Shown: positions 27,039-46,512, counted from the first letter of the stretch. The stretch is DNA of 64,000 bases from Myxococcota bacterium (GCA_965250285.1 OZ252299.1:5440001-5504000); one strand, 5' to 3'. A program made the numbers and translations. The notes: a model not told the origin generated them from the sequence alone.

Positions 27039-27320
27039 GTTAGGCCGCGTGGCACAAGGCCCTCTAGTTGCTGGGTGCCGATTCCTGCCCACCGCCTTCT
27101 CGAACCCGGCAGCTCGTTGCGAGCTCGCTAGCTAGTTGACCTGCTCGCTTCGCCCTTAGGTCACTCCCGACAGATCGCATGCGACGCATCGCCAAAGTGG
27201 CCACAACCGGCTCTCTGGGGCGAGCTTCGCCTTCGGTCTGCTCGATCCAACTCGACTGCCGAATCCCATCTTGGCAGGGGGTAGGGCGGTAGAGGGTCTG
27301 CTCTTCGCACGCGGTCTAAC
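27039..27320 (+). ncRNA. ORF-less structured cassette, copy 1 of 9
   Basis: Conserved 281-283 bp body, no conserved ORF, nested helices. Confidence 0.55.
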
Positions 27321-27442
27321 AAGCCGTTGCAGCGGACTTGCTACCGCTGAGGCGCTTTCGGTTCTTGGTAGAATCTCGGGCGTCCGAGGCGTTCAGCCGC
27401 TGCGAGCAAGGCCGCCGCAAGCCGCTGAACGCCGACCGTTAG

Positions 27443-27806
27443 ATGGCGGAGACGCGAGATAGGACGTTACAAGTTCAAGCTTGGCCAGAAGCCACGACGA
27501 AAGCGCCGGTTAGATTCCGGGCGTACGCGCATTCGTCGAGGTGGCGATCCGACGGCAGCAGGAAGAGAGCGGGGCGATCCGATTTCTCCCGAAGAGCGTT
27601 GGGTTCCGAGCTTCGACGACGTAATTGCAGCATTGGTCGTCATTTCGCTGATCACATTCTTCATTGCCGCGTTCTGTTCTCTTGGCCACTGTTCATGTGC
27701 GGGGCTGAGTGCTTACTCGAACTCTCGAGTGAGTCTCGTCACTCCGTTGCCCCTGCAGATTCGCCCGCCATCTAACAAGGCGTTGCAGCGGACTTGCTTA
27801 GGCTGA
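27443..27806 (+). CDS. cassette 6 (three identical copies): hypothetical, reading frame ambiguous
   Basis: An ATG frame (27443-27775) and an ATA-initiated TM-containing frame (27459-27806) are both open. Confidence 0.4.
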
Positions 27807-27908
27807 GGCGATATCGGGTCGTGGTAGACTGCCGGGTGTCCGAGGCATTCAGCCGCTGCGAGCTAGGTCGCCGCAAGCCGCTGAACGCCGACCGTTAGGC
27901 GGCGTGCC

Positions 27909-28193
27909 GTGATCACGAGGTACTCGGTCGCAGCTCTGGCAGCCGTCGCTGTCACGGGCTCCGCGTTCTGGTTCGGCTCGTCGTTGCTCGACCGCGAAGC
28001 AGCGGCGCATTGCCCCAAGAACGACCTATACGAACTCTCGAAGCGCAGCCGATCGGAATGCCGAGTCGCCCATTCGCGCGACTGTAGTTCCTCCTGCGAG
28101 CTGGTCATGACCGACGTCTATGCGGCCGACTGCAGCAGCTCCATGTTCGTTGAGGTGTGCGTTCCGTCGAGCGAGCTTTCTGCGTTCCGATGA
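27909..28193 (+). CDS. cassette 7: duplicate of cassette 3
   Basis: Identical protein; one synonymous difference seen. Confidence 0.6.
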   Translation: MITRYSVAALAAVAVTGSAFWFGSSLLDREAAAHCPKNDLYELSKRSRSECRVAHSRDCSSSCELVMTDVYAADCSSSMFVEVCVPSSELSAFR

Positions 28194-28368
28194 GTTGCTC
28201 AAGCGAAATGGCGTGCCAGACGCCGCCTAACAAGCCGTTGCAGCGGACTTGCTGACGCTGAGGCGTTGTCGGGTCGTGATAGAATCACGGACATCCGAGG
28301 CATTCAGTCGCTGCGAGCAAGGCCGCCGCAAGCCGCTGAACGCCGACCGTTAGGCAGCGGAAGCGGCA

Positions 28369-28710
28369 ATGACGCGTCGAACTCCGCTCCTCATCTTCGG
28401 AACCTTGGCATTCGGCATGCTGGTAGCGTGCTCGCCCGACGTATGGAGCGCACAAGAGCTCTCCGACTGGCACGCGCGAAACGCGGAGGGTTCGCCGCAC
28501 TACAGTCCGCTCTACTACACCGGTACCGACGACGACTACCACCACTTTAAGTGTCGCGCGATGGACACGTGGGTTGTAGTTCGCGTACCGCGGGACCAGA
28601 TCACGATTCCCGAGGTCCCGGCGTCACAAGATCCCGGTGCCGTGCCACGGCTGTACGCTGTCGACCCAGCGAATGACTATCGAATCCTCGAAGCTTCGGC
28701 AGGCCAGTAG
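28369..28710 (+). CDS. cassette 8: putative lipoprotein
   Basis: Lipobox LVAC. Confidence 0.7.
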   Translation: MTRRTPLLIFGTLAFGMLVACSPDVWSAQELSDWHARNAEGSPHYSPLYYTGTDDDYHHFKCRAMDTWVVVRVPRDQITIPEVPASQDPGAVPRLYAVDPANDYRILEASAGQ

Positions 28711-28862
28711 AGCGCACGCCGCTGCCTAACAAGCCGTTGCAGCGGACTTGCTGACGCTGAGGCGATATCGGGCCGTGGTAGAGTCACGGGCGTCCAAGGC
28801 ACTCAGTTGCTGCGAGCAAGGCCGCCGCAAGCCGCTGAACGCCGACCGTTAGGTGGCGAGAC

Positions 28863-29219
28863 TTGGAAGTTGACGACGTAACGACGCTCAATCGGCCCAC
28901 TGGCCCGGAAGAGCTCGCCCTCGTCGAGCAGTCCGGCTTTCGTCGTTGGCCGCCTCGACTGCCTGAGCAGCCGATCTTCTATCCAGTCACGAATGAAGCC
29001 TACGCCGTCGAAATCGCCAAGAACTGGAACGCCCGCGACGGCAAAGCCGGGTACGTAACCCGATTCAGCGTTCGGTCTAGTTTCATGAGCCAGTACGAGA
29101 TCCAAACTGTGGGCGCCAAGCATCACACAGAGTGGTGGGTGCCTGCCGACGAACTCGACGAGCTGAATGACAACATCGTCGGCACGATCGAAGTCATCCA
29201 GGCGTTCGATCCGAGCTGA
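28863..29219 (+). CDS. cassette 9: small protein of the family often labelled ADP-ribosylation/crystallin J1
   Basis: RPTGPEEL...WPPRLPEQPIFYPVTNEAYA...GYVTRF...EWWVPADEL. Confidence 0.8.
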   Translation: MEVDDVTTLNRPTGPEELALVEQSGFRRWPPRLPEQPIFYPVTNEAYAVEIAKNWNARDGKAGYVTRFSVRSSFMSQYEIQTVGAKHHTEWWVPADELDELNDNIVGTIEVIQAFDPS

Positions 29220-29353
29220 CGCGCTCGCCACCTAACAAGCCGTTGCAGCGGACTTGCTCCCGCTGAGGCGATATCGGGCCGTGGTAAACTGGCCGGCGTC
29301 CGAGGCATTCAGCCGCTGCGAGCCAGGTCGCCGCAAGCCGCTGAACGCCGACC

Positions 29354-29634
29354 GTTAGGCCGCGTGGCACAAGGCTCTCTAGTTGTTGGGTGCCGATTCC
29401 TGCCCACCGCCTTCCCGAATCGGGCAGCTCGTTGCGAGCTCTGGCGTTGGCTGATCTGCTTGCTTCGCCCTTAGGTCACTCCCAATAGATCGCATGTGAC
29501 GCATCGCCAAAGTGACCACAGCCGGCTCTCTCATGCGCGCTTCGCCTTCGGCCTGCTCATCCCACCCGAGAGCAGAATCGAGGCTTGGCAGGGGGTAGGA
29601 CGGCAGAGGGTCCGTCCTTCGCACGCGGTCTAAC
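29354..29634 (+). ncRNA. ORF-less structured cassette, copy 2
   Basis: Homologous to 27039-27320. Confidence 0.55.
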
Positions 29635-29796
29635 AAGCCGTTGCAGCGGACATCGTCCAGCTGAGGCGATATCGGCTCTGTTAGCTTCTTGGCAACGAAC
29701 CAAGTGCGTTCTGCGGAGCCGGTCAGCAGCTGGCCGATGCCGCTGAACGCCGACCGTTAGGCGGCGTTTCGTGCCAAGCACGGAGTTTCAGCGACC

Positions 29797-30084
29797 GTGA
29801 CCAGCTACTTGCGGCGTGGCCCAGGTGCCAAGAAAGCTGAGGCTCTCGGCCGTGCCGAGACCGCACTCCGTGATGCTATCTCTCGGGGCGATGCTTCTAA
29901 GGCTATCGCCAAGCTCGCTGATCGCGTCCGAGACGCGAAGCTTGGCTACCTCAAAGCGAGACTCTTCGAGGCCCGCGGCGACTTCAGTCGAGACGCCCCT
30001 TCCCAGCAGGTCTCCAATCTCGAGTCCGAGCAGGCCGCTTGGTCGACGCTCTCCGTCGACGACGTCATCGACCGCTATCGCTAA
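29797..30084 (+). CDS. cassette 11: hypothetical helical protein
   Basis: GGAG SD; fills the cassette. Confidence 0.65.
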   Translation: MTSYLRRGPGAKKAEALGRAETALRDAISRGDASKAIAKLADRVRDAKLGYLKARLFEARGDFSRDAPSQQVSNLESEQAAWSTLSVDDVIDRYR

Positions 30085-30242
30085 GGCTCGGGACTCCAAC
30101 GCCGCCTAACAAGCCGTTGCAGCGGACTTGCTACCGCTTGAGCCGATTTGGGTCGTGGTACCATGCCGGCAATCGATGGCGTCTCAGCAGGTTGTGCCAA
30201 ATCGGCGCAAGCCGCTGAACGCCGACCGTTAGGCGGCGTTAC

Positions 30243-30653
30243 ATGGACGATGTCGCGTACGTCCGACGGGTCATGTGGCTGCCTTCGTTCGTCCCGTTTG
30301 TGCTTGCCGCAATGGATGATCTTTCGAACTACTCCGTTGGTTCATACATCCAAAGTAGTCTCATGCTGGGAGCTGCGACCTATCCTGCCTTCGTTCTGAT
30401 CTCGCGGTACGCGTTTCGCGCCGACGGGCGGCGTGCCCATTGGGCGCTGTTGTTCGCTTCTCCCATCGCCTTTCCAGTCTTCTACGCGTCTGTGAATGGA
30501 ACGATCTGGTACTCTGAAGATGGCTGGGGCATAGGCCTGTATGTGTTTATGCTCTTCTATTCTCTCGTGCTCTGTATTCCACTCGGCTATGCATTCGCGC
30601 TCGTAGCATGGGCTGCCAGAAGACTCTGGCTCCGTCGCGACAACGCCGCCTAA
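30243..30653 (+). CDS. cassette 12: membrane protein, paralog of 46649
   Basis: MDDVAYVRRVMWLP; stop is the TAA of attC. Confidence 0.75.
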   Translation: MDDVAYVRRVMWLPSFVPFVLAAMDDLSNYSVGSYIQSSLMLGAATYPAFVLISRYAFRADGRRAHWALLFASPIAFPVFYASVNGTIWYSEDGWGIGLYVFMLFYSLVLCIPLGYAFALVAWAARRLWLRRDNAA

Positions 30654-30770
30654 CAAGCCGTTGCAGCGGACTTGCTAACGCTTGAGGCCAACCGGCTCGT
30701 GGTAGAATCTCGAAGTCCGAGGCGTTGTCAGTCGCTGTGCCAGATCGGCGCAAGCCGCTGAACGCCGACC

Positions 30771-31052
30771 GTTAGGCCGCGTGGCACAAGGCCCTCTAGT
30801 TGTTGGGTGCCGATTCCTGCCCACCGCCTTCTCGAATCGGGCAGCTCGTTGCGTGCTCGCCAGCTATCTGACCTGCTCGCTTCGCCCTTAGGTCACTCCC
30901 GACAGATCGCATTCGACGCATCGCCAAAGCGGCCACAACCGGCTCTCTGGGTCGAGCTTCGCCTTCGGTCTGCTGGATCCCACTCGACTGCCGAACTCCA
31001 GCTTGGCAGGGGGTAGGGCGGTAGAGGGTCTGCTCTTCGCACGCGGTCTAAC
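30771..31052 (+). ncRNA. ORF-less structured cassette, copy 3
   Basis: Homologous to 27039-27320. Confidence 0.55.
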
Positions 31053-31196
31053 AAGCCGTTGCAGCGGACTTGCTACCGCTGAGGCGATATCGGGTCGTGG
31101 TAGACTGATCAGCGTCCGAGGCGTTTAGTCGCTGCGAGCAAGGCCGCCGCAAGCCGCTGAACGCCGACCGTTAAGCGGCGAGCGCGGAGCAGACGC

Positions 31197-31586
31197 GTGT
31201 CGGCCACACGCAAACCGTATGCGGCAGAGTTCGATGGAGCGTTAGAGCTCTGGCACTCCGGCGACCCGGAGGCTGCTATCACGCAGCTGCAAGACCTGGC
31301 GGTCCGGTATCCGAACGAAGCCGCAATCCACGGCATGCTGGGCGGGTATCTCTACGACCACGGTGGCCTGCTCGAGGCCGAGCCACATGCTCGGGCAGCC
31401 GTGCGGCTGTCCCCACGGTCTCAGCTAGCCGCTCGGACCCTGTTTCACGTTCTTCACGATCTCGGTCGGCTCACGGATGCGATCGAAGAGCTCAAGCGCT
31501 TCAGGTCAGCCACCGAAAGTGACGAGCTTCGTCGCGAATGGTCGCGTCTCGTCCGAGCCGTCGAGGCCGAACTTGGCGAGCGGTGA
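31197..31586 (+). CDS. cassette 14: TPR protein
   Basis: AITQL...YPNEAAIHGMLG...ARAAVRLSP...LHDLGRLTDA. Confidence 0.75.
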   Translation: MSATRKPYAAEFDGALELWHSGDPEAAITQLQDLAVRYPNEAAIHGMLGGYLYDHGGLLEAEPHARAAVRLSPRSQLAARTLFHVLHDLGRLTDAIEELKRFRSATESDELRREWSRLVRAVEAELGER

Positions 31587-31721
31587 TTCGTCTCGCCGCC
31601 TAACAAGCCGTTGCAGCGGACTTGCTAACGCTGAGGTGATTTCGGGTCGTGGTAGACTGGTCGAAGTCTGAGGCGTTCAGCCGCTGCGAGCAAGGCCGCC
31701 GCAAGCCGCTGAACGCCGACC

Positions 31722-32002
31722 GTTAGGCCGCGTGGCACAAGGCCCTCTAGTTGTTGGGTGCCGATTCCTGCCCACCGCCTTCTCGAATCGAGCAGCTCGT
31801 TGCGAGCTCGGCAGCTAGCTGATTTGTTCGCTTCGCCCTTAGGTCACTCCCGACAGATCGCATGCGACGCATCGCCAAAGTGGCCACGGCCGGCTCTCTG
31901 GGGCGAGCTTCGCCTTCGGCCTGCTCATCCTACTTGAGTGCAGAACTCCAGCTTGGTAGAGGGTAGGGCGCCAGGGGGTCTGCTCTTCGCACGCGGTCTA
32001 AC
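31722..32002 (+). ncRNA. ORF-less structured cassette, copy 4
   Basis: Homologous to 27039-27320. Confidence 0.55.
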
Positions 32003-32146
32003 AAGCCGTTGCAGCGGACTTGCTACGGCTGAGGCGTTCTCGGTTCTTGGTAGAATCTCGGGCGTCCGAGGCGTTCAGCCGCTGCGAGCAAGGCCGCCGC
32101 AAGCCGCTGAACGCCGACCGTTAGGCAGCCGGAACGCCAAGCCAAG

Positions 32147-32647
32147 ATGAAACCCCTCGCCCGCCTTGGCTTCATCCTCCTCGGTGTGTACGGGACCCTG
32201 GCGTCGCTGCGAGGTGTCTCCTACTTCATCCGCACGGCGGCGGTCACCCCTCCGGCCGACTCAGGTCAGACGCTCTCTGCTCTCATCATCACCGCGAGCT
32301 TGTTCGATCTCGCGCCGCCGATTCTTCTCATCTGGTTCAGCAAGCGCCTCGCAGACTTCGCGTTTCCTTTCGATCAAGAGGCAAGCCTCGATGTTGGCGC
32401 CTCATCTTTGGTTTCCGCTGGCGTCTCTGTTCTCGGGGTCTACGTCGCGGCGATCGGTGTCTCGGGCTTGGTTGGTGCTGCGGTCGCTGCGGGTACTTCA
32501 GTGCGCTTCCTCGAGAACCCTGCCTTTCGCGAGGGGCTGTTCTCTGGCCTCGGCGAGTCCGTAGCGTTGGTGCTCATCGGCCTGGGCTTGTTCGTCTACG
32601 GTCCTCGGCTGGTCTCGGGCCGAGAGGGCAGAGCGCCGGCTGCCTAA
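32147..32647 (+). CDS. cassette 16: 4-TM membrane protein
   Basis: Hydrophobic; stop in attC. Confidence 0.75.
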   Translation: MKPLARLGFILLGVYGTLASLRGVSYFIRTAAVTPPADSGQTLSALIITASLFDLAPPILLIWFSKRLADFAFPFDQEASLDVGASSLVSAGVSVLGVYVAAIGVSGLVGAAVAAGTSVRFLENPAFREGLFSGLGESVALVLIGLGLFVYGPRLVSGREGRAPAA

Positions 32648-32782
32648 CAAGCCGTTGCAGCGGACTTGCTTACGCTGAGGCGATTTTGGTTCTTGCTAGA
32701 ATCTCGGGCGTCCGAGGCGTTCAGTCACTGCGAGCAAGGCCGCCGCAAGCCGCTGAACGCCGACCGTTAGCCAGCACACGAC

Positions 32783-33331
32783 ATGCGTTGCCAGATCTTC
32801 GTCTCTGTCCTGCTCCTGCTCGCAGCTTCAGGCTCGCGCGCTGAGGAGAACCAACCTGCTTCGAAGGACGAGTTCGGTTCGGTCGTAGTCGTCAGCGAAC
32901 GAATCGAAGCCGCGATCGCGGCGGGTGAGCTTCACCGGCAGACGAAGAACTTCGGTTGGGCCAATCCTGGCTGCAAGCTCCAGGGCTATCCGATTCTCGA
33001 GAGATCGCTCGTCCTCGACACCGAGGGGCAGATTCGGCTCTATGATCGCTCGCAGATCGTCTCGCATGGTGCGATTGAGCGTATCCGAAGCTTCTTTGAC
33101 GAGCGCGGTCGCCTGCGGATCGTCGAGCGGAAGCTCGGCAACACGATCGACCTGGTTAGAGTAAGCGAGTCCGGCAAGATTTTGCTCTCCCGGGTATCCC
33201 ATGACCGCGGCGAAACCTGGCATCAGTACTCCGCTGACTTCGACGACTGGTACATGAATCCGCGCACACCGAGCGAAGTCGAGGCTGAGTTCGCTGAATC
33301 AGAGCCGACGTGTGAGCAAGGTGCAGGCTAA
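32783..33331 (+). CDS. cassette 17: exported hypothetical protein
   Basis: Signal peptide; stop in attC. Confidence 0.75.
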   Translation: MRCQIFVSVLLLLAASGSRAEENQPASKDEFGSVVVVSERIEAAIAAGELHRQTKNFGWANPGCKLQGYPILERSLVLDTEGQIRLYDRSQIVSHGAIERIRSFFDERGRLRIVERKLGNTIDLVRVSESGKILLSRVSHDRGETWHQYSADFDDWYMNPRTPSEVEAEFAESEPTCEQGAG

Positions 33332-33464
33332 CAAGCCGTTGCAGCGGACTTGCTAACGCTGAGGCGATCTCGGGTCGTGGTAGAATCTCGGGTGTCCGAG
33401 GTGTTCAGTTGCTGCGAGCAAGGCCGCCGCAAGCCGCTGAACGCCGACCGTTAGGTGGCGAAGC

Positions 33465-33890
33465 GTGAAGCTGCTGCTCGCCATACTTGTTCCGGTCGTG
33501 CTCGGTTCTTCATTGGCGCTTAGCTGCGTTCCGGACCCGGTGCCTGTGTTGGTGTTCAACAACTCAGGCTCGCAGCTCTTACTCTTCGTCTACGACCGTG
33601 GCTACCGGCTTAGCCCGGGTGACTCTCAGCAGATTGATTTGTACGGCGATTTCAGCACCATATCTGTCTACCTTCCCCGCGGTCGATTCGAATACCTGGT
33701 CTTCTTCGATGAGCTCACGGTCGACTTTCAGAGGCTGATCGGCGGCGAGTACCGCATCCAGATCGAACCAGACCTCCGTGCATTCATCCTGGAGAAGCGC
33801 ACTCGTCCCCCTGTTGACACTGAGAAGATGGTTCAGCCTCCTGGGTTTCCTCTGGTTCCTAAGCTCGCAGAGGCTTGGTCTGCCACCTAA
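33465..33890 (+). CDS. cassette 18: putative lipoprotein
   Basis: ALSC lipobox-like; stop in attC. Confidence 0.7.
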   Translation: MKLLLAILVPVVLGSSLALSCVPDPVPVLVFNNSGSQLLLFVYDRGYRLSPGDSQQIDLYGDFSTISVYLPRGRFEYLVFFDELTVDFQRLIGGEYRIQIEPDLRAFILEKRTRPPVDTEKMVQPPGFPLVPKLAEAWSAT

Positions 33891-34008
33891 CAAGCCGTTG
33901 CAGCGGACTTGCTGACGCTGAGGCGATATCGGGTCGTGGTACCATGTCGGTTGTCAATGGCGTCTCGGCAGGCCGTGCCAGGTCGGCGCAAGCCGCTGAA
34001 CGCCGACC

Positions 34009-34290
34009 GTTAGGCCGCGTGGCACAAGGCTCTCTAGTTGTTGGGTGCCGATTCCTGCCCACCGCCTTCTCGGATCGAGCAGCTCGATGCGAGCTCGCTA
34101 GCTAGTTGACCCGCTCGCTTCGCCCTTAGGTCGTTCCCGACAGATCGCATGCGACACATCGCCAGTGTGGCCACAACCGGCTCTCTGGGGCGAGCTACGC
34201 CTTCGGCCTTGCTCATCCCACTCGACTGCCGAACTCCAGCTTGGCAGGGGGTAGGGCGGCAGAGGGTCTGCTCTTCGCACGCGGTCTAAC
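34009..34290 (+). ncRNA. ORF-less structured cassette, copy 5
   Basis: Homologous to 27039-27320. Confidence 0.55.
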
Positions 34291-34420
34291 AAGCCGTTGC
34301 AGCGGACTTGCTACCGCTGAGGCGCTTTCGGTTCTTGGTAGAATCTCGGTCGTCCCAGGCGCTCAGTCGCTGCGAGCAAGGCCGCCGCAAGCCGCTGAAC
34401 GCCGACCGTTAGGCAGCGGG

Positions 34421-35737: not shown

Positions 35738-36018
35738 GTTAGGCCGCGTGGCACAAGGCCCTCTAGTTCTTGGGTGCCAATTCCTGCCCACCGCCTTGTC
35801 GAGTCGAGCAGCCCGTTGCGAGCTCGGGCGCTAGCTGACCTGCTTGCTTCGCCCTTAGGTCATTCCCGACAGATCGCATGCGACGCATCGCCAAAGTGGC
35901 CACAACCGGCTCTCTGGGGCGATCTTCGCCTTCGGCTTGCTGGTCCAACTCGACTGCCGAACTCCAGCTTGGCAGGGGGTAGGGCGGTAGCGGGCCGGCT
36001 CTTCGCACGCGGTCTAAC
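35738..36018 (+). ncRNA. ORF-less structured cassette, copy 6
   Basis: Homologous to 27039-27320. Confidence 0.55.
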
Positions 36019-36135
36019 AAGCCGTTGCAGCGGACTTGCTACCGCTGGGGTGCTTTCGGTTCTTGGTAGAATCTCGGGTGTCCGAGGCGTTCAGTCGCTG
36101 CGAGCAAGGTCGCCGCAAGCCGCTGAACGCCGACC

Positions 36136-36416
36136 GTTAGGCCGCGTGGCACAAGGCCCTCTAGTTGTTGGGTGCCGGTTCCTGCCCACCGCCTTCTCGA
36201 GTCGGGCAGCTCGTTGCGAGCTCGGGCGCGAGCTGACCTATCTGCTTCGCCCTTAGGTCACTCCCAATAGATCGCATGTGACGCATCGCCAAAGTGGCCA
36301 CAACCGGCTCTCTGCGGCGAGCTTCGCCTTCGGCCTTCTCGTCCTACTCGAGTGCAGAACGCCAGCTTGGCAGGGGGAAGGGCGCCAGAGGGTCCGCTCT
36401 TCGCACGCGGTCTAAC
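36136..36416 (+). ncRNA. ORF-less structured cassette, copy 7 (adjacent to copy 6)
   Basis: Homologous but diverged from copy 6. Confidence 0.55.
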
Positions 36417-36545
36417 AAGCCGTTGCAGCGGACTTGCTACCGCTGAGGCGGTCCCGGTTGTTGTTAGGATCTCGGGCGTCCGAGGCGTTCAGTCACTGCG
36501 AGCAAGGCCGCCGCAAGCCGCTGAACGCCGACCGTTAGGCAGCGA

Positions 36546-38446: not shown

Positions 38447-38740
38447 ATGAAGCGAACAGCCTACTCGCCCGAACTGCAGTCGGAACTCGCACATGGTAAG
38501 TATACGAAGTGGGCAGCTGATCTGACTGAAGCCGAGCTTTACAACCTGCTATGGCTCGTAGGCGAGTTCGGCGTTCGCACGCCAGAAGACAGCGAGGGGC
38601 CGGTGATCGGCGCGAGTCACCGACGCGCCGGCGCTCGCTGGGGCATAGTTCAGTATGTCCGCTGCCGGCGAGCGGTGTCGTTCCAGCGCGCCATACGTCG
38701 TTACAATCCAGACGGCTCGTTGAGAAAGCCGAGTGCCTAG
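38447..38740 (+). CDS. cassette 28: hypothetical protein
   Basis: GGAG SD; duplicated at 45226. Confidence 0.65.
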   Translation: MKRTAYSPELQSELAHGKYTKWAADLTEAELYNLLWLVGEFGVRTPEDSEGPVIGASHRRAGARWGIVQYVRCRRAVSFQRAIRRYNPDGSLRKPSA

Positions 38741-38889
38741 CTCGTCCGCCGCCTAACAAGCCGTTGCAGCGGACTTGCTAACGCTGAGGCGATATCGGGT
38801 CGTGGTAGACTGGCCGGTGTCCGAGGCGTTCAGCCGCAGCGCGCAAGGCCGCCGCAAGCCGCTGAACGCCGACCGTTAGGCGGCACTCG

Positions 38890-39255
38890 ATGCTTGGCCT
38901 GGCTCGCGCACGGGGCTTGGGTGCTCGCTTGGAGAACGTGGCTCTCTTTGCAGGGCTCACTACTGTGTCCCTGCTCTTCGTGGCCTTGCGCAAGACTTAT
39001 CTCTATCCCGACGATGTCACCATTCCATACCTAAGCGGTCCCAGGCTCTGGTTCTCCGCGAGTCTAATTGCAGGTACCGTCGGCGCCTCTTTGGTGCTTC
39101 GTGTTCGGCGCTCGCAGCGTCTCCGTTTGCGCGGCGTCGCTGCTCTTTCGCTGTCTGCGAGTCCGCTCGTTCTCGTGCTCGCGCTGCTTGTTGTGGTCGC
39201 CGTGGCCTATGTGGCCGGGGTCCAGGTTTTCATCTGGGCGCAAGGTGCCGCCTAA
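38890..39255 (+). CDS. cassette 29: membrane protein
   Basis: 3 TM segments; stop in attC. Confidence 0.7.
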   Translation: MLGLARARGLGARLENVALFAGLTTVSLLFVALRKTYLYPDDVTIPYLSGPRLWFSASLIAGTVGASLVLRVRRSQRLRLRGVAALSLSASPLVLVLALLVVVAVAYVAGVQVFIWAQGAA

Positions 39256-39388
39256 CAAGCCGTTGCAGCGGACTTGCTCCCGCTGAGGCGATATCGGGTC
39301 GTGGTAGACTGGCCGGCGTCCGAGGCGTTCAGCCACTGCGAGCAAGGCCGCCGCAAGCCGCTGAACGCCGACCGTTAGGCGGCCGCTC

Positions 39389-39772
39389 GTGCACGTTCGT
39401 GTGATCTTCATCGGTCTGCTGCTGCTCGGCTCAGCTGCTGGCGACGTCGCTCTTGCAGAACCGGCTTGCCAGATGCCGCCTGATTCTGCCTCGGTCCGAT
39501 CTCGGGTCCTGGGGGCGACGCGTCTGCTTCCAACTTACGTCGATGGAAAGATGGTCGGGCTCACCGTCGACCAGATCGATCCCGACAGTCTCCTGGCACC
39601 TTCCGATCTGCGCGTTGGTGACATGATCGTTGCAGTCAACGGACTCGATATCACCAACCCAAAGTCCGGTAAAGAACTCCTCTGTCGCCTGGGTCGATCA
39701 GAACCGGTCACTATTCATGTTGAGCGAGATTCCGGCGAGCGCGTCCCCATCACCATCGCCGCGGCCGCCTAA
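39389..39772 (+). CDS. cassette 30: exported PDZ-domain protein (GspC PDZ-like)
   Basis: DGKMVGL...PDSL...LRVGDMIVAVNG...VERD. Confidence 0.75.
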   Translation: MHVRVIFIGLLLLGSAAGDVALAEPACQMPPDSASVRSRVLGATRLLPTYVDGKMVGLTVDQIDPDSLLAPSDLRVGDMIVAVNGLDITNPKSGKELLCRLGRSEPVTIHVERDSGERVPITIAAAA

Positions 39773-39905
39773 CAAGCCGTTGCAGCGGACTTGCTAACGC
39801 TGGTTCGATATCGGGTCATGGTAGACTGCCGGGTGTCCGAGGCGTTCAGTCGCTGCGAGCAAGGCCGCCGCAAGCCGCTGAACGCCGACCGTTAGGCGGC
39901 CGCGG

Positions 39906-40352
39906 GTGGGTAGCGAAGCCGATCAGATCGAGAAGATCCTTTCTCGCCGCAAGAATGCGCGCGCGAGGCTTTCGCTGTCCTACATGTCCGACACAAAGTG
40001 GGCTCGCGCGCTCACAGCGCTCGCCGAGAAGCACCCGGGCCTCCATTGCACATGGAAGCTGGTAGGCAACCCGGAGCCGTGTCCAGGCCATCTGCCGATC
40101 GAGCCCCCGTTGCGCCAGCAAAGCCACCTCGACGACGGCTGGCTGCTGGCGCCGTTCTTCTTACTCCCGAACTACAGCGATGTCGAATGGCTGGAGGTGC
40201 CAGCTCGAGCCCGTTGGCAGCCGCATCCGAAGCTAGAGCCCGTCACTTCTACTCAAGACATTCAGTCGATCGCCCAAACCCTCGAGGCCGTTGGCTCTCT
40301 CGAACTCGAGGCAACTGAGACGCACCTGCGGCTATACGGCTATCGCCCCTAG
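39906..40352 (+). CDS. cassette 31: hypothetical (DUF6678-like)
   Basis: SYMSDTKW...YSDVEWLE...LRLYGY. Confidence 0.65.
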   Translation: MGSEADQIEKILSRRKNARARLSLSYMSDTKWARALTALAEKHPGLHCTWKLVGNPEPCPGHLPIEPPLRQQSHLDDGWLLAPFFLLPNYSDVEWLEVPARARWQPHPKLEPVTSTQDIQSIAQTLEAVGSLELEATETHLRLYGYRP

Positions 40353-40528
40353 ACGCGCGCCGCCTAACAAGCCGTTGCAGCGGACTTGCTCACGCTGAGG
40401 CGTTGTCGGGTCGTGGTAGAGTCACGGGCATCCGAGGCGTTTAGTCGCTGCGAGCAAGGCCGCCGCAAGCCGCTGAACGCCGACCGTTAGGCGGCGCGGG
40501 TATCGCTGCAATCGCTAGCGTCACGGGG

Positions 40529-40894
40529 ATGCCGATCGGTAGGTCGCTCACTTATCCGGGCCGCGCAGTAGCCGCTTTCTTGGCCGTCTGGGGCATCGGG
40601 CTGGCCGTAGCATCAGCAGTCTCTCTCGTGCTTGGGCAGTTTCCTGCCTCGCTTGGCCTTGGCGGCGCGATCTCTGCTCTCGTAGTGACTTCCCTTGTGT
40701 CTGCCTACGCAATTCGGTCCGGCCTCGCTCGGCTAGCTCTCGCGTCGTACGCTGCTTGGTCGGTCCTGCTCTTCGGGCTGTTTTTCCATGCCGTCTATGA
40801 CCCTGGTCGTCCACAAGACGTGTTTGGCTATGCGTTTGCGGCTCTCTTTCTCGGCCTTCTGGGTCTCTATCTCGCGCGACAGCTGCGGCACTAG
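40529..40894 (+). CDS. cassette 32: 4-TM membrane protein
   Basis: Hydrophobic ORF filling the cassette. Confidence 0.7.
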   Translation: MPIGRSLTYPGRAVAAFLAVWGIGLAVASAVSLVLGQFPASLGLGGAISALVVTSLVSAYAIRSGLARLALASYAAWSVLLFGLFFHAVYDPGRPQDVFGYAFAALFLGLLGLYLARQLRH

Positions 40895-41035
40895 CAGGTT
40901 GTCGCGTCGCCGCCTAACAAGCCGTTGCAGCGGACTTGCTAACGCTGAGGCGATATCAGGTCGTGGTAGAATGGCGGGCGTCTGAGGCGCTCAGTCGCTG
41001 CGAGCAAGGCCGCCGCAAGCCGCTGAACGCCGACC

Positions 41036-41374
41036 GTTAGATGGCGGAGACGCGAGATAGGACGTTACAAGTTCAAGCTTGGCCAGAAGCCACGACGAAA
41101 GCGCCGGTTAGATTCCGGGCGTACGCGCATTCGTCGAGGTGGCGATCCGACGGCAGCAGGAAGAGAGCGGGGCGATCCGATTTCTCCCGAAGAGCGTTGG
41201 GTTCCGAGCTTCGACGACGTAATTGCAGCATTGGTCGTCATTTCGCTGATCACATTCTTCATTGCCGCGTTCTGTTCTCTTGGCCACTGTTCATGTGCGG
41301 GGCTGAGTGCTTACTCGAACTCTCGAGTGAGTCTCGTCACTCCGTTGCCCCTGCAGATTCGCCCGCCATCTAAC
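41036..41374 (+). mobile_element. cassette 33: third copy of cassette 6
   Basis: Sequence matches 27438-27776. Confidence 0.9.
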
Positions 41375-41516
41375 AAGGCGTTGCAGCGGACTTGCTTAGG
41401 CTGAGGCGATATCGGGTCGTGGTAGACTGCCGGGTGTCCGAGGCATTCAGCCGCTGCGAGCTAGGTCGCCGCAAGCCGCTGAACGCCGACCGTTAAGTGG
41501 CACGATCGGCGGCCAG

Positions 41517-41987
41517 GTGGTGACTCTCGAACTCCGGTGGTCCAAGACGAAGCTCTATCTGTATCTGGCCGGCTCTTGCGCTTTCGTAGCTGGCAGCATT
41601 CTGGCCGATCTCCAGTGGTGGGAACGCGCGCTCGCTGCTGTCATTGGTGTCGTCGGCTCGGTGGCTCTTGCGCTGCGCCTTCAGCGGCAGACCCAACCGG
41701 TCTTGGTCATCTCGCCGGAAGGAGTTCAAGACTCCCGACTGACGCCGTCCCTCATGCCGTGGTCAACGATCGAGGCGGTGCAGTTCGAACCCAAGTACTT
41801 CCGCGGTGGTGCGATCCTCGTTGACCTGCACGCCGGTCTTCCAACTCCGACGGTCAACGCCAGCCTCTTCACGACACGAGGTCACTCGCCGACAGCTCAA
41901 GAAGGGCGTGTCAGGCTGCCGCTGTACGATCTGTCCTTCGACTCAGGCGCGGTGCGTCAGGCTCTCGAAGCCACGCGTGCCACCTAA
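41517..41987 (+). CDS. cassette 34: 2-TM protein with PH-like domain
   Basis: PVLVISPEGVQD...MPWSTIEAV. Confidence 0.7.
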   Translation: MVTLELRWSKTKLYLYLAGSCAFVAGSILADLQWWERALAAVIGVVGSVALALRLQRQTQPVLVISPEGVQDSRLTPSLMPWSTIEAVQFEPKYFRGGAILVDLHAGLPTPTVNASLFTTRGHSPTAQEGRVRLPLYDLSFDSGAVRQALEATRAT

Positions 41988-42121
41988 CAAGCCGTTGCAG
42001 CGGACTTGCTAACGCTGAGGCGATATCGGGTCGTGGTAGACTGGCCGGTGTCCGAGGCGTTCAGCCGCAGCGAGCAAGGCCGCCGCAAGCCGCTGAACGC
42101 CGACCGTTAGGTGGCGGGGGA

Positions 42122-42583
42122 ATGGAGCCGGCGACAGACGACGACCTGCGCCCAGTACTCCCCGGAGAGCGCTGGACGCCACCTACTAACTTGGCAGCAA
42201 GACTCTTCTTCACCCTCCTTCGCCGCATACATGACCAACAAGACTGGGTCTGGCGGGGCGACGAGCCACACGTCAGTCTGGTGTTTCTGACTGCCATCCC
42301 CCAGGTTCTAAACGTGGCGACCCTCTTGGAATTCTTCATCCCACGTGAGAACGCCATCAGGCTAGTCGGCCCCGAACTCTCAAGCGCTATCGGCGTCTGC
42401 GCTGTTTCGCTGCCTGTTCTTCTTGAGGTCTGGTGGCTTCGCGAGCCTGGGCGACTCCACGTGGTGATCTGGGAAGCAGATACCTATCGATACTTGTCGG
42501 GCCCTATTGGTACTGCCCTGGTGGTCGCATACGTAGTGGGTTCGTTTCTTCTCTTCGGTCTAGTCGCCACGCCCGCCACCTAA
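42122..42583 (+). CDS. cassette 35: membrane protein
   Basis: Stop in attC. Confidence 0.7.
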   Translation: MEPATDDDLRPVLPGERWTPPTNLAARLFFTLLRRIHDQQDWVWRGDEPHVSLVFLTAIPQVLNVATLLEFFIPRENAIRLVGPELSSAIGVCAVSLPVLLEVWWLREPGRLHVVIWEADTYRYLSGPIGTALVVAYVVGSFLLFGLVATPAT

Positions 42584-42723
42584 CAAGCCGTTGCAGCGGA
42601 CGTGGCAACGCTTATGCCATGCCGGTCGTGGTAGGCTTGCGGAGTCCCAGGCGTCCCGAGCCGCGGTGCAAGGTTGCGCCACGCCGCTGAACGCCGACCG
42701 TTAGGCAGCATGGTCGTGTCTCC

Positions 42724-43077
42724 GTGGACGTGATCTCCGTCGAAGAATGGCAGCTCACCTCATTCTTCGAGGTGCTGCCGAGCTACCCCGATCCCGACTC
42801 ACCGTGGCCGTACACGGAAGTGGTCTATGAGGTCACCCGTGGTGACCTCTCGATGACATGCGCCATCTGCCCCGCGTACCGAGATGTCCGTCTCATTGTC
42901 CGTCACGGTGAAGCCGTCTCATACGAGTTGAACGCCACCCAGGTCCAGGATCTTTCCTACACGAAGGACGCTTCGGGCGAATCGTTGCGAATTGCGACCA
43001 GCGATTCTGAGTACATCGACCTGCGCCTCAACCCAGGTATCTCGATCAAGCACACAGTCGACCACCAGTTCGACTAG
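42724..43077 (+). CDS. cassette 36: hypothetical protein
   Basis: Fills the cassette. Confidence 0.7.
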   Translation: MDVISVEEWQLTSFFEVLPSYPDPDSPWPYTEVVYEVTRGDLSMTCAICPAYRDVRLIVRHGEAVSYELNATQVQDLSYTKDASGESLRIATSDSEYIDLRLNPGISIKHTVDHQFD

Positions 43078-43228
43078 TGCGCATGCTGCCTAACAAGCCG
43101 TTGCAGCGGACTTGCTAACGCTTGGGCGATATCGGGTCGTGGTAGACTGCCGGTTGTCCTAGGCATTCAGTCGCTGCGAGCCAGGTCGCCGCAAGCCGCT
43201 GAACGCCGACCGTTAGGCAGCATCTCCC

Positions 43229-43690
43229 GTGCCGGAAGTTCGCGTCGTTATCCCGGACGAAACCTACGGAATCGTCAAGTTTCGCCAAGACGATCTCCCT
43301 GGTGTTGCCGTCATCAACAAGTCGTTGGTTGGATTCGCGTCGCGGGAGGTCTTTCGGTGGCATCTCTCGATCATGGTCCACTTCGAAGAGATCATCGACA
43401 ACGGTATGCCTGCTCAGGCTGACGTTGGTCTCGTAGATCGATTCGGCGATCAGCTAGATCAGGAACTCAAAGTCGACTCTGAGCGTCCGAATGCCCTCTT
43501 CCTGGGGCGTGTGACCTGGAACGAGACTCGTGAGCTCATCTATCGGGTATACGACCCGGAAGTCACGAACGACCTTCTCCAGCGAATCGTGAGCGATCGA
43601 ACGCATCCTCGAGAGTTCGACTATCGCATTGACGATGATCCTGACTGGGGCCTTGCAGAGTGGCATCTGAATGCGTGCGCTCCCGCTTAA
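43229..43690 (+). CDS. cassette 37: DUF695-like protein
   Basis: NGMP...LFLGRVTWNETRELIYRVYDP...DDPDW. Confidence 0.75.
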   Translation: MPEVRVVIPDETYGIVKFRQDDLPGVAVINKSLVGFASREVFRWHLSIMVHFEEIIDNGMPAQADVGLVDRFGDQLDQELKVDSERPNALFLGRVTWNETRELIYRVYDPEVTNDLLQRIVSDRTHPREFDYRIDDDPDWGLAEWHLNACAPA

Positions 43691-43826
43691 TGCCCCGATG
43701 CTGCCTAACAAGCCGTTGCAGCGGACTTGCTTACGCTGAGGCGATCTAGGGCCGTGGTAGACTGACCGGCGTCCGAGGCGTTCAGCCACTGCGAGCAAGG
43801 CCGCCGCAAGCCGCTGAACGCCGACC

Positions 43827-44107
43827 GTTAGGCCGCGTGGCACAAGGCTCTCTAGTTGTTGGGTGCTGAATCCTGCCCACCGCCTTCTCGAGTCGGGCAG
43901 CTCGTTGCGAGCTCTCCAGCTAGCTGACCCGTTCGCTTCGCCCTTAGGTCATCCCCGACAGATCGAGCGCGACGCATCGCCAAAGTGGCCACAACCGGCT
44001 CTCTGGGTCGAACTTCGCCTTCGGCCTGCTCATCCCACTCCACTGCCGAACTCCAGCTTGGCAGGGGGTAGGGCGCCAGAGGGTCTGCTCTTCGCACGCG
44101 GTCTAAC
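43827..44107 (+). ncRNA. ORF-less structured cassette, copy 8
   Basis: Homologous to 27039-27320. Confidence 0.55.
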
Positions 44108-44251
44108 AAGCCGTTGCAGCGGACATCGTCCAGCTGAGGCGATATCGGCTCTGGTAGTTTCTTGGCAACGAACCAAGTGCGTTCAGCGAGACCGGTCAGC
44201 AGCTGGCCGATGCCGCTGAACGCCGACCGTTAGACAGCCGGAGCGGCGCCT

Positions 44252-44632
44252 GTGACGCTCGATCAAGCGCTGATCGCGAGCCTCGGAATCGGAATGCTTG
44301 CGTGCATTGCCCTCGTTCTCAGGGGCTATATCGAGGTTCGCATTCGATTCAGTGGCTTTCTCAGGTCCGAGCGCCCGGAACTATGGTCGCAGCTCGCCCC
44401 TTCTCACAACGACTCCGAAGAGTTCGTCACCCTGGGCATTTTGAGCTTCGATCCCACGCCAGCAATTTCGCGTTTTCGACGCGGGGGCTTTCGCGAGCTC
44501 GCCGACACCGAGCTTTCTGCGCGCTGTGCGCATGCGAACCGCGCGGAGCGCATCGGACTTCTCTCGTGGTTCGCCCTGCTCGCGTGGACGTTGGTCGTGT
44601 TCGGAGTCATCATCGCCTTGCGTGCCGCGTGA
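44252..44632 (+). CDS. cassette 39: 2-TM protein
   Basis: GGAG SD; fills the cassette. Confidence 0.7.
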   Translation: MTLDQALIASLGIGMLACIALVLRGYIEVRIRFSGFLRSERPELWSQLAPSHNDSEEFVTLGILSFDPTPAISRFRRGGFRELADTELSARCAHANRAERIGLLSWFALLAWTLVVFGVIIALRAA

Positions 44633-44801
44633 ACCGGCTGTCTAACAAGGCGTTGCAGCGGACACCGAACAGCTGGATCGAATCGACCGTGTTAGCCTCT
44701 TGGCATCAACCCAGGTGCTTCATCGGCCCGGTCAGCGCCGTCCGGTGCCGCTGAACGCCGATCCGTTAGGCGGCGTTCGAGTTGACTCGAGACGTACTCG
44801 A

Positions 44802-45053
44802 ATGACAAGGTCGCCGTGGTTGACAGGCTTGGCCCTTGGCATCGTGATCGGGGCCATCGCGGCCGGCTTCGCTGTGTTCGCGGCTCTCGATCACAACCCG
44901 CAGGGCGAGTTCCAGCGCGGTGGCTCGGTCCAGGTCGGTCCTCTTCTCTTGATAGGTGGTAGCTGGTTCGGACTCGTGGGCGCCGTTGTGTGGCTTGTGT
45001 TGGGCTCGGCTCTGGCGATTCTCCGACGAAGGCGCGAACACCACGCCGCCTAA
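44802..45053 (+). CDS. cassette 40: small 2-TM protein
   Basis: ALDHNPQGEF between TM helices; stop in attC. Confidence 0.65.
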   Translation: MTRSPWLTGLALGIVIGAIAAGFAVFAALDHNPQGEFQRGGSVQVGPLLLIGGSWFGLVGAVVWLVLGSALAILRRRREHHAA

Positions 45054-45225
45054 CAAGCCGTTGCAGCGGACGTGGCAACGCCTTCGCTCTATCGCTGGTG
45101 GTAGAATTTCCACATCCCAGGCTTCGGCCGTCGTGGTGCAAGGTTGTGCCACGCCGCTGAACGCCGAACCGTTAGGCGGCGGAACTGTGTGCTGAAGCGT
45201 GCCGCGGGAATGACGGAGCCCTTCG

Positions 45226-45519
45226 ATGAAGCGAACAGCCTACTCGCCCGAACTGCAGTCGGAACTCGCACATGGTAAGTATACGAAGTGGGCAGCTGAT
45301 CTGACTGAAGCCGAGCTTTACAACCTGCTATGGCTCGTAGGCGAGTTCGGCGTTCGCACGCCAGAAGACAGCGAGGGGCCGGTGATCGGCGCGAGTCACC
45401 GACGCGCCGGCGCTCGCTGGGGCATAGTTCAGTATGTCCGCTGCCGGCGAGCGGTGTCGTTCCAGCGCGCCATACGTCGTTACAATCCAGACGGCTCGTT
45501 GAGAAAGCCGAGTGCCTAG
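45226..45519 (+). CDS. cassette 41: duplicate of cassette 28
   Basis: Identical protein. Confidence 0.65.
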   Translation: MKRTAYSPELQSELAHGKYTKWAADLTEAELYNLLWLVGEFGVRTPEDSEGPVIGASHRRAGARWGIVQYVRCRRAVSFQRAIRRYNPDGSLRKPSA

Positions 45520-45676
45520 CTCGTCCGCCGCCTAACAAGCCGTTGCAGCGGACTTGCTAACGCTGAGGCGATATCGGGTCGTGGTAGACTGGCCGGTGTC
45601 CGAGGCGTTCAGCCGCAGCGCGCAAGGCCGCCGCAAGCCGCTGAACGCCGACCGTTAGGCCGCAACTCGAGCTTGA

Positions 45677-46111
45677 ATGATGCGATGGTCGGTAGATACG
45701 GCGGACGCGCACCGTCTTCTTTGGGCGGTCCTTGATCACTTTGAAGGCAATGCGCTTGTCTCGTTCGAGGGCAGGCTTTCCGACCTCGGGCTCTCGCCCA
45801 TTTCTGGTGCCCGATCAGACGAGTCTTCGGTACTTCGCAGGCACACACAGCTCCCAGTTCAAGACTTCGTAGTTCTACCCGTGAACCGTGAGACGATTCG
45901 CGACGTGAAGCGCTGTCTCTCAGACGTCGAGCTCATCGACGAGTCCGGGCCGGTCATTCACGTCCAGGTCCAATCGGGCGACTCCCTAGTTCTCGGGGCG
46001 TACGACAATTTCGATCCCGAGTGCGTCGTGGTCTGGCCCCCTACGCCAGAGGCGTTGCTTCAAGGGCTCCTCGAGGCCGGCGCCCTCCGCTCGTACAACG
46101 TTGCGGCCTAA
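45677..46111 (+). CDS. cassette 42: hypothetical protein
   Basis: VSFEGRL...HVQVQ...LGAYDNFDPEC. Confidence 0.75.
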   Translation: MMRWSVDTADAHRLLWAVLDHFEGNALVSFEGRLSDLGLSPISGARSDESSVLRRHTQLPVQDFVVLPVNRETIRDVKRCLSDVELIDESGPVIHVQVQSGDSLVLGAYDNFDPECVVVWPPTPEALLQGLLEAGALRSYNVAA

Positions 46112-46229
46112 CAAGCCGTTGCAGCGGACTTGCTACCGCTGAGGCGATATCGGTCCGTGGTAGCATGGCGGGCATCCGAGGCGTTCCGTGACTGCGAGCA
46201 AGGCCGCCGCAAGCCGCTGAACGCCGACC

Positions 46230-46512
46230 GTTAGGCCGCGTGGCACAAGGCCCTCTAGTTGTTGGGTGCCGATTCCTGCCCACCGCCTTCTCGAGTCGGG
46301 CAGCTCGTTGCGAGCTCTCCAGCTAGCTGACCCGTTCGCTTCGCCCTTAGGTCATCCGCGACAGATCGAGCGCGACGCATCGCCAAAGTGCCCACAACCG
46401 GCTCTCTGGGGCGACCTTCGCCTTCGGCCTGCTCTCATCCCACTCGACTGCCGAACTCCAGCTTGGCAGGGGGTAGGGCGCCAGAGGGTCTGTTCTTCGC
46501 ACGCGGTCTAAC
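46230..46512 (+). ncRNA. ORF-less structured cassette, copy 9
   Basis: Homologous to 27039-27320. Confidence 0.55.

Follow-up and report, generated by a model that had tools for sequence, protein, structure and literature searches.

The window, the 64,000-nucleotide stretch of Myxococcota bacterium DNA analysed here (host GC 69%; assembly a single contig with a repetitive array), holds a chromosomal integron with an intact-looking integrase, IntI, in whose frame we see what we take to be the R, K, HxxR, H and Y motifs. A cassette array, co-oriented with IntI, adjoins this gene and an attI-like junction. Forty-nine cassette bodies are delimited between intact attC sites; a 50th, the first, lies at attI (23990-24430), and 16 further degenerate attC-like units continue to 62.6 kb. 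Nine of the 49 bodies form one gene-less family, with starts and lengths (281-283 bp) exactly as originally predicted. Each body lies between GTTRRRY and RYYYAAC and is followed by its own attC, giving a unit of about 282 bp plus attC, or 398 bp in all, and the flanking cassettes differ for each copy. We found no family copy in the decayed distal array, in a second mini-array or in the rest of the genome.

Features of the integron and of the gene-less cassette family (positions counted from the first letter of the window; a dot marks no assigned strand).
Feature	Position	Strand	Remarks
IntI	22777..23781	+	TIGR02249 439 bits (cut-off 265); PF00589 and PF13495; uninterrupted frame
attI-like junction	23960..23996	+	first cassette begins at G23990; from sequence
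Extended -10 look-alike TGnTAnnnT, upstream attC	26966..26975	+	63 nt before copy 1; predicted
Copy 1 body	27039..27320	+	282 bp
Copy 2 body	29354..29634	+	281 bp; most diverged, 84-88% to others
Copy 3 body	30771..31052	+	282 bp
Copy 4 body	31722..32002	+	281 bp
Copy 5 body	34009..34290	+	282 bp
Copy 6 body	35738..36018	+	281 bp; tandem with copy 7
Copy 7 body	36136..36416	+	281 bp
Copy 8 body	43827..44107	+	281 bp
Copy 9 body	46230..46512	+	283 bp; 97% to copy 8
attC of copy 1	27314..27444	+	subtype common to copies 4, 5, 6, 7; 91-97% alike
attC of copies 4, 5, 6, 7	31996-32126, 34284-34414, 36012-36142, 36410-36540	+	copy-1 subtype
attC of copy 2	29628..29762	+	135-bp subtype, only behind copies 2, 8, 9
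attC of copies 8, 9	44101-44235, 46506-46640	+	135-bp subtype
attC of copy 3	31046..31176	+	common array subtype; copy 3 body 95% like copy 1
Terminal 13-bp stem, 5' arm	27039..27051	+	pairs 27308-27320; generic to array
Outer helix H2, 5' arm	27058..27065	.	pairs 27291-27298; columns 20-27/254-261; predicted
Outer helix H3, 5' arm	27084..27096	.	pairs 27273-27285; columns 46-58/236-248; predicted
Hairpin, columns 99-105/119-125	27137..27163	.	invariant GCTTCGC in loop; predicted
46-codon frame (141 bp), copy 1	27064..27204	-	pN/pS 0.93; Pfam blank

Pairwise identity among the nine copies ranges from 84 to 97%. At about 10% divergence, copy length is kept within 2 nt, and gaps are confined to alignment columns 203-204. 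Each of the nine copies has its own sequence, while 7 of the 40 other cassettes belong to near-identical duplicate groups; recent over-duplication of the family is thus not seen. An assembly artefact as the source of this divergence is hardly credible, even for a single-contig genome with a repetitive array: coding duplicates of the same array are, as had been predicted, near-identical (99.7-100%); short-read contigs from X1, X2 and X3, possibly from the source study, agree at 99% or more in 138/184, 193/245 and 143/181 cases; and alleles resembling copies 2 and 5 are found again in run X5, an independent marine metagenome from another study. Eight of the nine copies are followed by attC subtypes linked to the family, which have -10 variants of their own, and the array-type attC behind the copy-1-like body of copy 3 is a sign of probable attC exchange. 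Mosaic patterns are also seen between the copies. Four-gamete incompatibility rises from 0.27 for sites within 10 nt to 0.52 for sites over 80 nt apart, and body and attC distances are uncorrelated (Mantel rho 0.22, p 0.13).

The original prediction stated that the copies share no ORF. One 46-codon minus-strand frame does in fact run open through every copy and has an invariant GTG/ATG, but the judgement that the family is non-coding stands. Changes fall evenly over the codon positions of this frame (18/16/16), pN/pS lies between 0.68 and 0.96 over all six frames of the nine copies, and neither this frame nor the longest plus-strand frame of copy 6 matched Pfam. The family is without protein-type selection in any frame. 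Single copies carry chance ORFs of up to 85 codons at a body GC of 63%. Pseudogene decay usually brings large deletions; the copies have none, and only copy 4 carries a promoter-like TAnnnT hexamer on the minus strand of its body, leaving eight of nine without one. Although some gene-less Vibrio cassettes are described as deriving from broken genes (10.1101/2023.11.21.568050), we consider it very improbable that the body is a decayed gene or that its shared frame yields a small peptide.

Searches for relatives returned little. Rfam 15, with its ribozyme, group II intron domain and Y RNA models, gave no match in the window at the gathering score (best weak matches E 0.9-8, far below the cut-off). 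Blastn found no homolog in 61 relatives and only matches of 20-57 nt in 401 genomes of the phylum; a sequence-only model run over 151 genomes of the order gave a best outside E of 5.8e-4, with no match near an attC motif; and 209 cassettes on 40 stretches of 22 related genomes contained no family homolog. Pattern scans yielded 0 and 0 matches in two metagenome scans, 1 chance match in genome contigs, and 12, 12 and 0 matches, none homologous, in three viral scans. Among plasmids, 13 records share one 22-nt match (E 0.8), and phages gave none. The pattern scans detect exact motifs only, and the genomes of most relatives are fragmented bins; we therefore regard the family as not found rather than absent.

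Among the data searched, outside homologs came only from run X5. One of these copies lies directly behind attI-like sequence, the entry position, and 28 of 30 bases of the attI-like junction in the window equal the sequence directly 5' of it. Columns variable in X5 and in the family overlap at 24 of 28, a figure confounded by shared ancestry, and X5-new alleles at variable columns came to 6 of 10 by hand count against 35% expected, a weak difference. Two genomes of the same order, G020 and G043, hold their own diverged gene-less families (7 and 4 copies, plus-strand interior z -1.03 to +0.72, no folding signal), and no sequence homology was found between these families and that of the present genome.

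An extended -10 look-alike lies 62-64 nt 5' of all nine copies and is found in 49 of 49 attC sites examined. Since every such site carries one, the gene-less cassettes are likely transcribed, and plus-strand transcription from attC, as originally predicted, appears likely from these motifs. One possibility is that the body acts in cis, its untranslated length damping read-through and its own attC promoter restarting transcription, such that the array is split into expression blocks. Untranslated stretches are described as lowering downstream mRNA in integron arrays (PMC11511950), promoters are reported in gene-less Vibrio cassettes (10.1101/2023.11.21.568050), and the family-linked attC subtypes have -10 variants of their own. 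However, with a promoter-like motif already in every attC, an extra promoter cassette would add little. In addition, the body holds no plus-strand sigma-70 -10 hexamer (TAnnnT) in any of the nine copies, and its terminator-like sites show no excess (10 vs 11.5 expected); Blanco et al. warn that such promoters escape in silico detection (10.1101/2023.11.21.568050). We therefore consider a cis role quite improbable.

The cassettes had been predicted to fold into a conserved nested rod. The complementary motifs listed for it are present in the sequence, but energy-based folding does not yield the rod: when imposed on the nine copies it lies 14-31 kcal/mol above the minimum-energy structure, its inner helices have mean pair probabilities of 0.01-0.22, and its tcgccc/gggcga pairing is broken in four of nine copies. 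The proposed compensation at columns 61:219 is real in copies 6 and 7, but five of the nine copies have a C.C mismatch there. The ccgcgtg/cacgcgg stem is array-wide rather than particular to the family, as 12-14 perfect pairs close the ends of 32 of the 40 other cassettes. Covariation was not significant: 353 of 500 shuffles reached the observed score, as did 500 of 500 in a second test, although with nine close sequences these tests have low power. With the terminal stem left out, interior folding resembled that of shuffles in eight of nine copies (z -1.09 to +0.65; copy 1, -3.57), and the nine minimum-energy folds disagree over the interior. Insignificant covariation and shuffle-like folding were among the outcomes originally named as refuting the proposal. 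Whole-cassette z, -1.5 to -4.5, was no better than that of 14 control cassettes of the 40 (-1.8 to -5.1). Compared by eye with consensus motifs, candidates for an HDV-like ribozyme, a Y RNA and a sigma-54 promoter (TGGCAC is there, but the -12 GC is not) were rejected, and a viroid-like or reverse-transcribed origin was likewise rejected (no ribozyme match, no reverse transcriptase, weak interior folding).

What our folding predictions do retain are the outer stems, rather than the full RNA rod. Helix H2 has a mean pair probability of 0.81, with 98.6% of cells paired; H3, 12 bp with two bulged A, has a consensus-ensemble probability of about 0.7, with 98.1% paired. The hairpin at columns 99-105/119-125 shows four compatible alleles and one incompatible allele among the nine copies, and in one X5 contig (depth 6.31) a compensatory change, T-A to C-G, at 104:120. 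These data give modest support to the three predicted elements, on either strand. H2 and H3 hold 7 alleles in 42 sites vs 95 in 215 elsewhere (p 0.004, a post hoc test in which closeness to the ends is a confounder); this scarcity of changes, together with the kept length, indicates some constraint on the family. IntI recombines the bottom strand, whose outer pairing is no weaker than that of the top strand, with 9.4-24.6 pairs vs at most 11.5 in 28 controls (RNA parameters), and because the bottom strand pairs equally well, the outer extension could belong to RNA or to single-stranded DNA. Taking the 68 candidate helices together, 40% of changes preserve pairing. On the bottom strand we also saw two to three GCGAAGC-type motifs per copy, presumably forming mini-hairpins, with one site lost in four of nine copies; this post hoc observation hints at structured single-stranded DNA or at a single-strand origin, and other gene-less families showed no enrichment of the motif.

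These features bear on whether the family is a functional non-coding RNA, that is, an attC-promoter transcript whose end-paired stem (13 bp, H2 and H3) encloses a variable and loosely folded interior containing one hairpin, and which works in trans as a regulator or decoy. Favoring this are the upstream promoter-like motif, the conserved length, the well-paired and little-changed H2 and H3, the 104:120 change in X5, and interior z, which is lower on the plus than on the minus strand in all nine copies. Wobble pairs, too, mostly suit the plus strand (C23T, A256G, C238T, C102T, C103T, A125G vs G241A, T104C), but this count is circular, because the helices were picked by top-strand rules. There is also a precedent in sRNA-Xcc1, an integron-borne non-coding RNA of Xanthomonas (Chen et al. 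2011, as cited in PMC8876359, PMC6557892 and 10.1101/2025.06.18.660453). As described there, however, sRNA-Xcc1 lies upstream of symE and spans 13 species, whereas our family has no partner gene, outside homolog or Rfam match. Further against an RNA function, no pair covaries significantly, interior folds differ between copies, 5 interior shuffles out of 60 match the family's outer pairing, 8-19 such pairs form in 8 of 28 control cassettes, no homolog was found outside the lineage, and the two analogous families lack a folding signal. Nor does a protein partner emerge: PF00078 (reverse transcriptase) and PF05731 (Ro60) were not found in this genome (95% complete), and PADLOC gave nothing better than E 0.008 for 16 proteins of the array. 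We thus regard a functional RNA as possible but doubtful. A bolder form is decidedly unlikely: with attC sites as promoters, the array would transcribe every cassette, and the family would be a repertoire of about 340-400-nt RNAs with an end-paired scaffold (the 13 bp, H2 and the 12-bp helix with its two bulged A) and a core made diverse by recombination between copies, a shufflable library of decoys or regulators that would parallel the protein cassettes at the RNA level and would have arisen separately in several lineages of the order.

Although the family had been called unrecognised, comparable cassettes are known. Boucher et al. (2006) described paralogous non-coding cassettes of Vibrio, many per array and 84-89% identical, and offered 'selfish elements' as one reading and a promoter or RNA function as the other (PMC1382264). 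As in those cassettes, we found no gene, conservation over the full length without a synonymous-site mutation pattern, multiple paralogs in one array and limitation to one lineage; by these features, the family is a new instance of the gene-less class described there (PMC1382264). It differs in its GC-rich host, in a sequence unrelated to any that we found, in a distribution that, within the data searched, is at about species level rather than genus-wide, and in its co-oriented IntI and promoter-like motif in every attC (PMC1382264). The gene-less 'promoter cassettes' of Vibrionaceae (10.1101/2023.11.21.568050 = PMC11014356) and the gene-less cassettes of Treponema (PMC6557892) have bodies of 335-515 bp, described as AT-rich, with measured promoter activity. 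Our family resembles these and the Treponema cassettes in being gene-less within a sedentary array (10.1101/2023.11.21.568050, PMC6557892), and in Treponema, too, IntI lies on the cassette strand (PMC6557892); unlike promoter cassettes as described, its body is shorter and GC-richer and has no sense-strand -10 hexamer, the motif lying in attC. An 'empty' cassette recurs several times in one array in Xanthomonas, a likeness judged from its description, but it also recurs across species, as our family was not seen to do (10.1101/2025.06.18.660453).

The best explanation, which we favor tentatively, is that the family is a gene-less cassette that recombines and persists as a passenger within one lineage. 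The integrase would treat a gene-less unit like any other cassette, excising and re-inserting it, and recombination between copies would likely keep shuffling old variants. Such a cassette, making no protein, may cost little. Its outer end-to-end helices could be kept because they lengthen the R-box stem in the single-stranded form that recombines, while the middle of the body would drift; transcription would probably start from the motif in the upstream attC, giving an RNA that needs no conserved fold. The confinement of the family to the intact-attC part of the array and the X5 copy at the entry position count in favor of this passenger reading. It agrees with one of the options originally offered, a 'selfish cassette', and of the 'mobile structured RNA' proposed alongside it, the mobile, non-coding, multi-copy and likely transcribed character holds, but not the conserved nested rod. 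Against it stand the lack of recent over-duplication and the constraint seen in length and in H2 and H3. Position 6 of the terminal stem is a family-specific G.T on the top strand. On the bottom strand it is A.C, a mismatch that this family alone has in its R box and that counts against tuning for recombination, and when excision and integration were modelled by folding (29 cassettes), the family had no advantage of its own. A 'ratchet', in which the body ends zip and block excision, was rejected as a family trait because bottom-strand end pairing was 0.01-0.98 in seven copies and reached 0.8 or more in 12 of the 22 other cassettes modelled.

As it stands, any function or conserved RNA fold of the family is hypothetical. 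Why large integrons hold multi-copy gene-less cassettes, whether selfish, promoter or RNA, has been asked since at least 2006 (PMC1382264), and the promoter-cassette answer from Vibrio is unlikely here, where a promoter-like motif is already present in each attC examined. With nine natural alleles of a 398-bp unit, the family is of a convenient size for assays of excision, of integration and of transcripts. Finally, mutually unrelated gene-less families occur in three genomes of one order, one family per genome, which points to recurrent integron dynamics or to an unrecognised RNA class.

All nine copies of the gene-less cassette that had been described from the sequence were recovered in place (281-283 bp, 84-97% identical), and the described contrast with duplicated coding cassettes holds, the three coding duplicate groups being 99.7-100% identical. 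The copies lie in a sedentary chromosomal integron whose first cassette adjoins attI, in a genome of a single 6.25-Mb contig (69% GC). Assembly error was ruled out as the source of their divergence, because the majority of short-read contigs from runs X1-X3 (which may be the source study) reach at least 99% identity, and because copy-2-like and copy-5-like alleles turn up again in X5, a marine metagenome run. X5 comes from a separate study. That the divergence is an artefact is hardly credible. In one X5 contig, the cassette stands immediately behind a sequence matching the window's attI at 28 of 30 bases; this attI-adjacent place is the site of latest insertion. No further copies were found elsewhere in the genome, the decayed distal array and the five-attC mini-array (C1:109-111 kb) included.

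Positions of the features discussed (window coordinates, unless a contig, a genomic stretch or columns of the nine-copy alignment are named)
Feature	Position	Remarks
intI	22777-23781	Co-oriented with cassettes; reads toward array
attI junction	23990	
First cassette	23990-24430	Encodes GspG-like pseudopilin domain (PF08334)
Intact attC sites examined for TGnTAnnnT	24424-50072	Motif in 49/49
Cassette bodies between intact attC sites	24548-50665	49 bodies
Two-gene cassette	25431-26922	1492 bp; 205 and 273 aa; lower GC by eye
Nine-copy gene-less family	27039-46512	
Degenerate distal zone	50666-64000 and beyond	At least 16 attC-like units; genes intact-looking, several with alike N-terminal starts (by eye)
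Degenerate attC-like units ending the array	up to 62.6 kb	16 units
Decayed distal array examined for TGnTAnnnT	50666-63100	R boxes (7-bp attC end boxes) lost; motif 13 on +, 0 on -
Further attC-like remnants	up to 6 kb beyond window end	2
Mini-array L022	G000:C1:109239-111540	Five attC sites of same type; distant from main array; no family copy
Helix H2 (predicted)	columns 20-27/254-261	Pair probability 0.81
Helix H3 (predicted)	columns 46-58/236-248	~0.7 in consensus ensemble
Hairpin (predicted)	columns 99-105/119-125	4 compatible alleles, 1 incompatible
Gene-less family of G020	L033:1824-2237, L034:360-3158, L095	412-416 bp; 7 copies (6 complete)
Gene-less family of G043	L099-L102, L042	381-401 bp; 4 consecutive copies
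Reverse-oriented two-gene cassettes	L036, L040, L044, L061, L037	Common to related genomes

The original prediction held that the cassette folds into a nested RNA rod. Whole-cassette folding z on the + strand was -1.5 to -4.5 for the nine copies, and -1.8 to -5.1 in 14 of the 40 other cassettes. We attribute these good scores, in family and controls alike, to the cassette ends, because 32 of the 40 other cassettes also carry 12-14 perfect terminal pairs. This complementarity, longer than the R box and seen in relatives' cassettes too, may be a relic of cassette formation. With the ends removed, interior z was -1.09 to +0.65 in eight of nine copies (copy 1, -3.57) and -2.38 to +0.84 in 12 controls, so that in those eight copies the interior does not fold better than shuffles. 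The rod itself lies 14-31 kcal/mol above the minimum energy, its inner helices have mean pair probabilities of 0.01-0.22, and its covariation was equalled or beaten by 353 of 500 shuffles. The compensation cited for it at columns 61:219 is present in copies 6 and 7, but five of the nine copies have a C.C mismatch there; of 84 pairs in the RNAalifold consensus none is compensatory, and its covariation term was unfavourable. With a costly rod, covariation within shuffles and weak interior folding, the structured-RNA claim remains unestablished. Nine closely related sequences give covariation low power, and a conserved fold is therefore unproven rather than excluded. The family had not been recognised as a known RNA, and Rfam indeed returned no match at gathering score, only noise at E 0.9-8.

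We treat the cassette body as non-coding on its pattern of substitution: derived alleles show no preference for any codon position, and each of the six frames has a pN/pS within 0.68-0.96. The statement that no ORF is shared proved inexact, as a 46-codon minus-strand frame is open in all nine copies. That this frame marks a peptide or pseudogene is quite improbable, given its pN/pS of 0.93 and the absence of a match in a Pfam search.

Outer pairing was predicted more firmly. H2 and H3, the latter in a register different from that proposed, are 98% paired and together hold 7 alleles in 42 sites versus 95 in 215 (p 0.004); this comparison was made post hoc, and end position confounds it. Predicted outer pairs number 9.8-21.2 on the top (+) strand; the bottom strand, which IntI recombines, has 9.4-24.6. 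Of the 40 other cassettes, the 28 that do not exceed 460 nt served as controls here: 20 of them have no more than 2.2 such pairs and 8 have 8-19 (top). The family median was attained by 5 of 60 interior shuffles. In the hairpin, which had been overlooked, the incompatible change carries a compensating partner in one X5 contig (depth 6.31, a single event). Wobbles, among them an R-box G.T pair peculiar to the family, tilt to the top strand; however, the helices were selected by top-strand rules. The chief competing explanation, which we consider unlikely, is a functional RNA built on an end-paired scaffold. Neither a reverse transcriptase nor Ro60 was found in the genome.

One attC subtype is common to five copies, and a 135-bp subtype, behind no other cassette, to three; copy 3 combines an array-common subtype with a body 95% similar to that of copy 1. 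Distances between bodies do not correlate with those between their attC sites (rho 0.22, p 0.13). Four-gamete incompatibility climbs with distance from 0.27 to 0.52. These data therefore indicate an old, recombining family; no two copies are identical, which disfavours a recent duplication burst. The most economical reading, held tentatively and at somewhat less than even confidence, is a lineage-specific passenger cassette. IntI would move a 398-bp minimal unit (the ~282-bp body plus its own attC) without protein product, variants would be mixed through recombination, and the outer helices would prolong the stem at the ends of the single-stranded intermediate. What we document is the cassette's anatomy, its non-coding mode of evolution, its mosaic sequence and its arrival at attI; the selective reason for its persistence we infer. 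Several points speak against the passenger reading: no pair of copies is identical, their length is tightly kept, the family-specific R-box G.T pair (top) becomes a mismatched A.C on the bottom strand, and in a folding model of 29 cassettes the family had no special advantage.

Homologs of the family were found neither in 61 relatives (most of them fragmented), 151 order genomes and 401 phylum genomes, nor among 209 cassettes extracted from 22 related genomes, in pattern scans of metagenomes, genome contigs and viral contigs, or in plasmids or phages. Two genomes of the same order, G020 and G043, have gene-less families of their own, unrelated to this one and to each other, 84-90% (several copies in tandem) and 84-95% alike, respectively. 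Their gaps shift frame, no ORF is in common, and + strand interior z is -1.03 to +0.72. G020 also has a 327-bp family (2 copies, 92%), and G043 one of 343-372 bp with three members. The window's two-gene cassette, without match in Pfam or PADLOC, looks like a candidate defence pair; the reverse-oriented two-gene cassettes of relatives we take, by eye, to resemble toxin-antitoxin pairs.

Gene-less cassettes are familiar from Vibrio arrays, where, according to excerpts of Boucher et al. (PMC1382264), 6-49% of cassettes are non-coding, one family has 45 and 34 copies, and paralogs are 84-88% alike, compared with 84-97% here; the same two readings, selfish element and promoter or RNA function, were already given there. 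Excerpts of PMC8876359, PMC6557892, PMC11511950 and 10.1101/2025.06.18.660453 also served as background.

An extended -10 look-alike, TGnTAnnnT, lies 62-64 nt upstream of every family copy, and the sense strand of the cassette body contains no -10 hexamer. The motif occurs at 0.045 per kb in the genome, and in relatives at 176 of 299 attC-like sites versus 1 of 299 in reverse. We take it for a putative promoter, and its distribution suggests one promoter per cassette throughout the order. If so, the family body would be transcribed like any cassette, and a separate promoter cassette would therefore be of little added use. Excerpts of Blanco et al. (10.1101/2023.11.21.568050) do report gene-less cassettes with promoter activity, and one of PMC2945992 a promoter bridging an attC; a cis-acting role, as insulator or promoter, nonetheless seems improbable to us. 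Blanco et al. also describe IntI on the cassette strand, as here, as atypical, for Treponema. A literature search, with most subscription journals outside its scope, returned no account of this family or of an array-wide attC promoter. The cassette family is real, well-defined and new in sequence, of a kind already known and still unexplained; the attC-wide -10 look-alike may outweigh it in interest.
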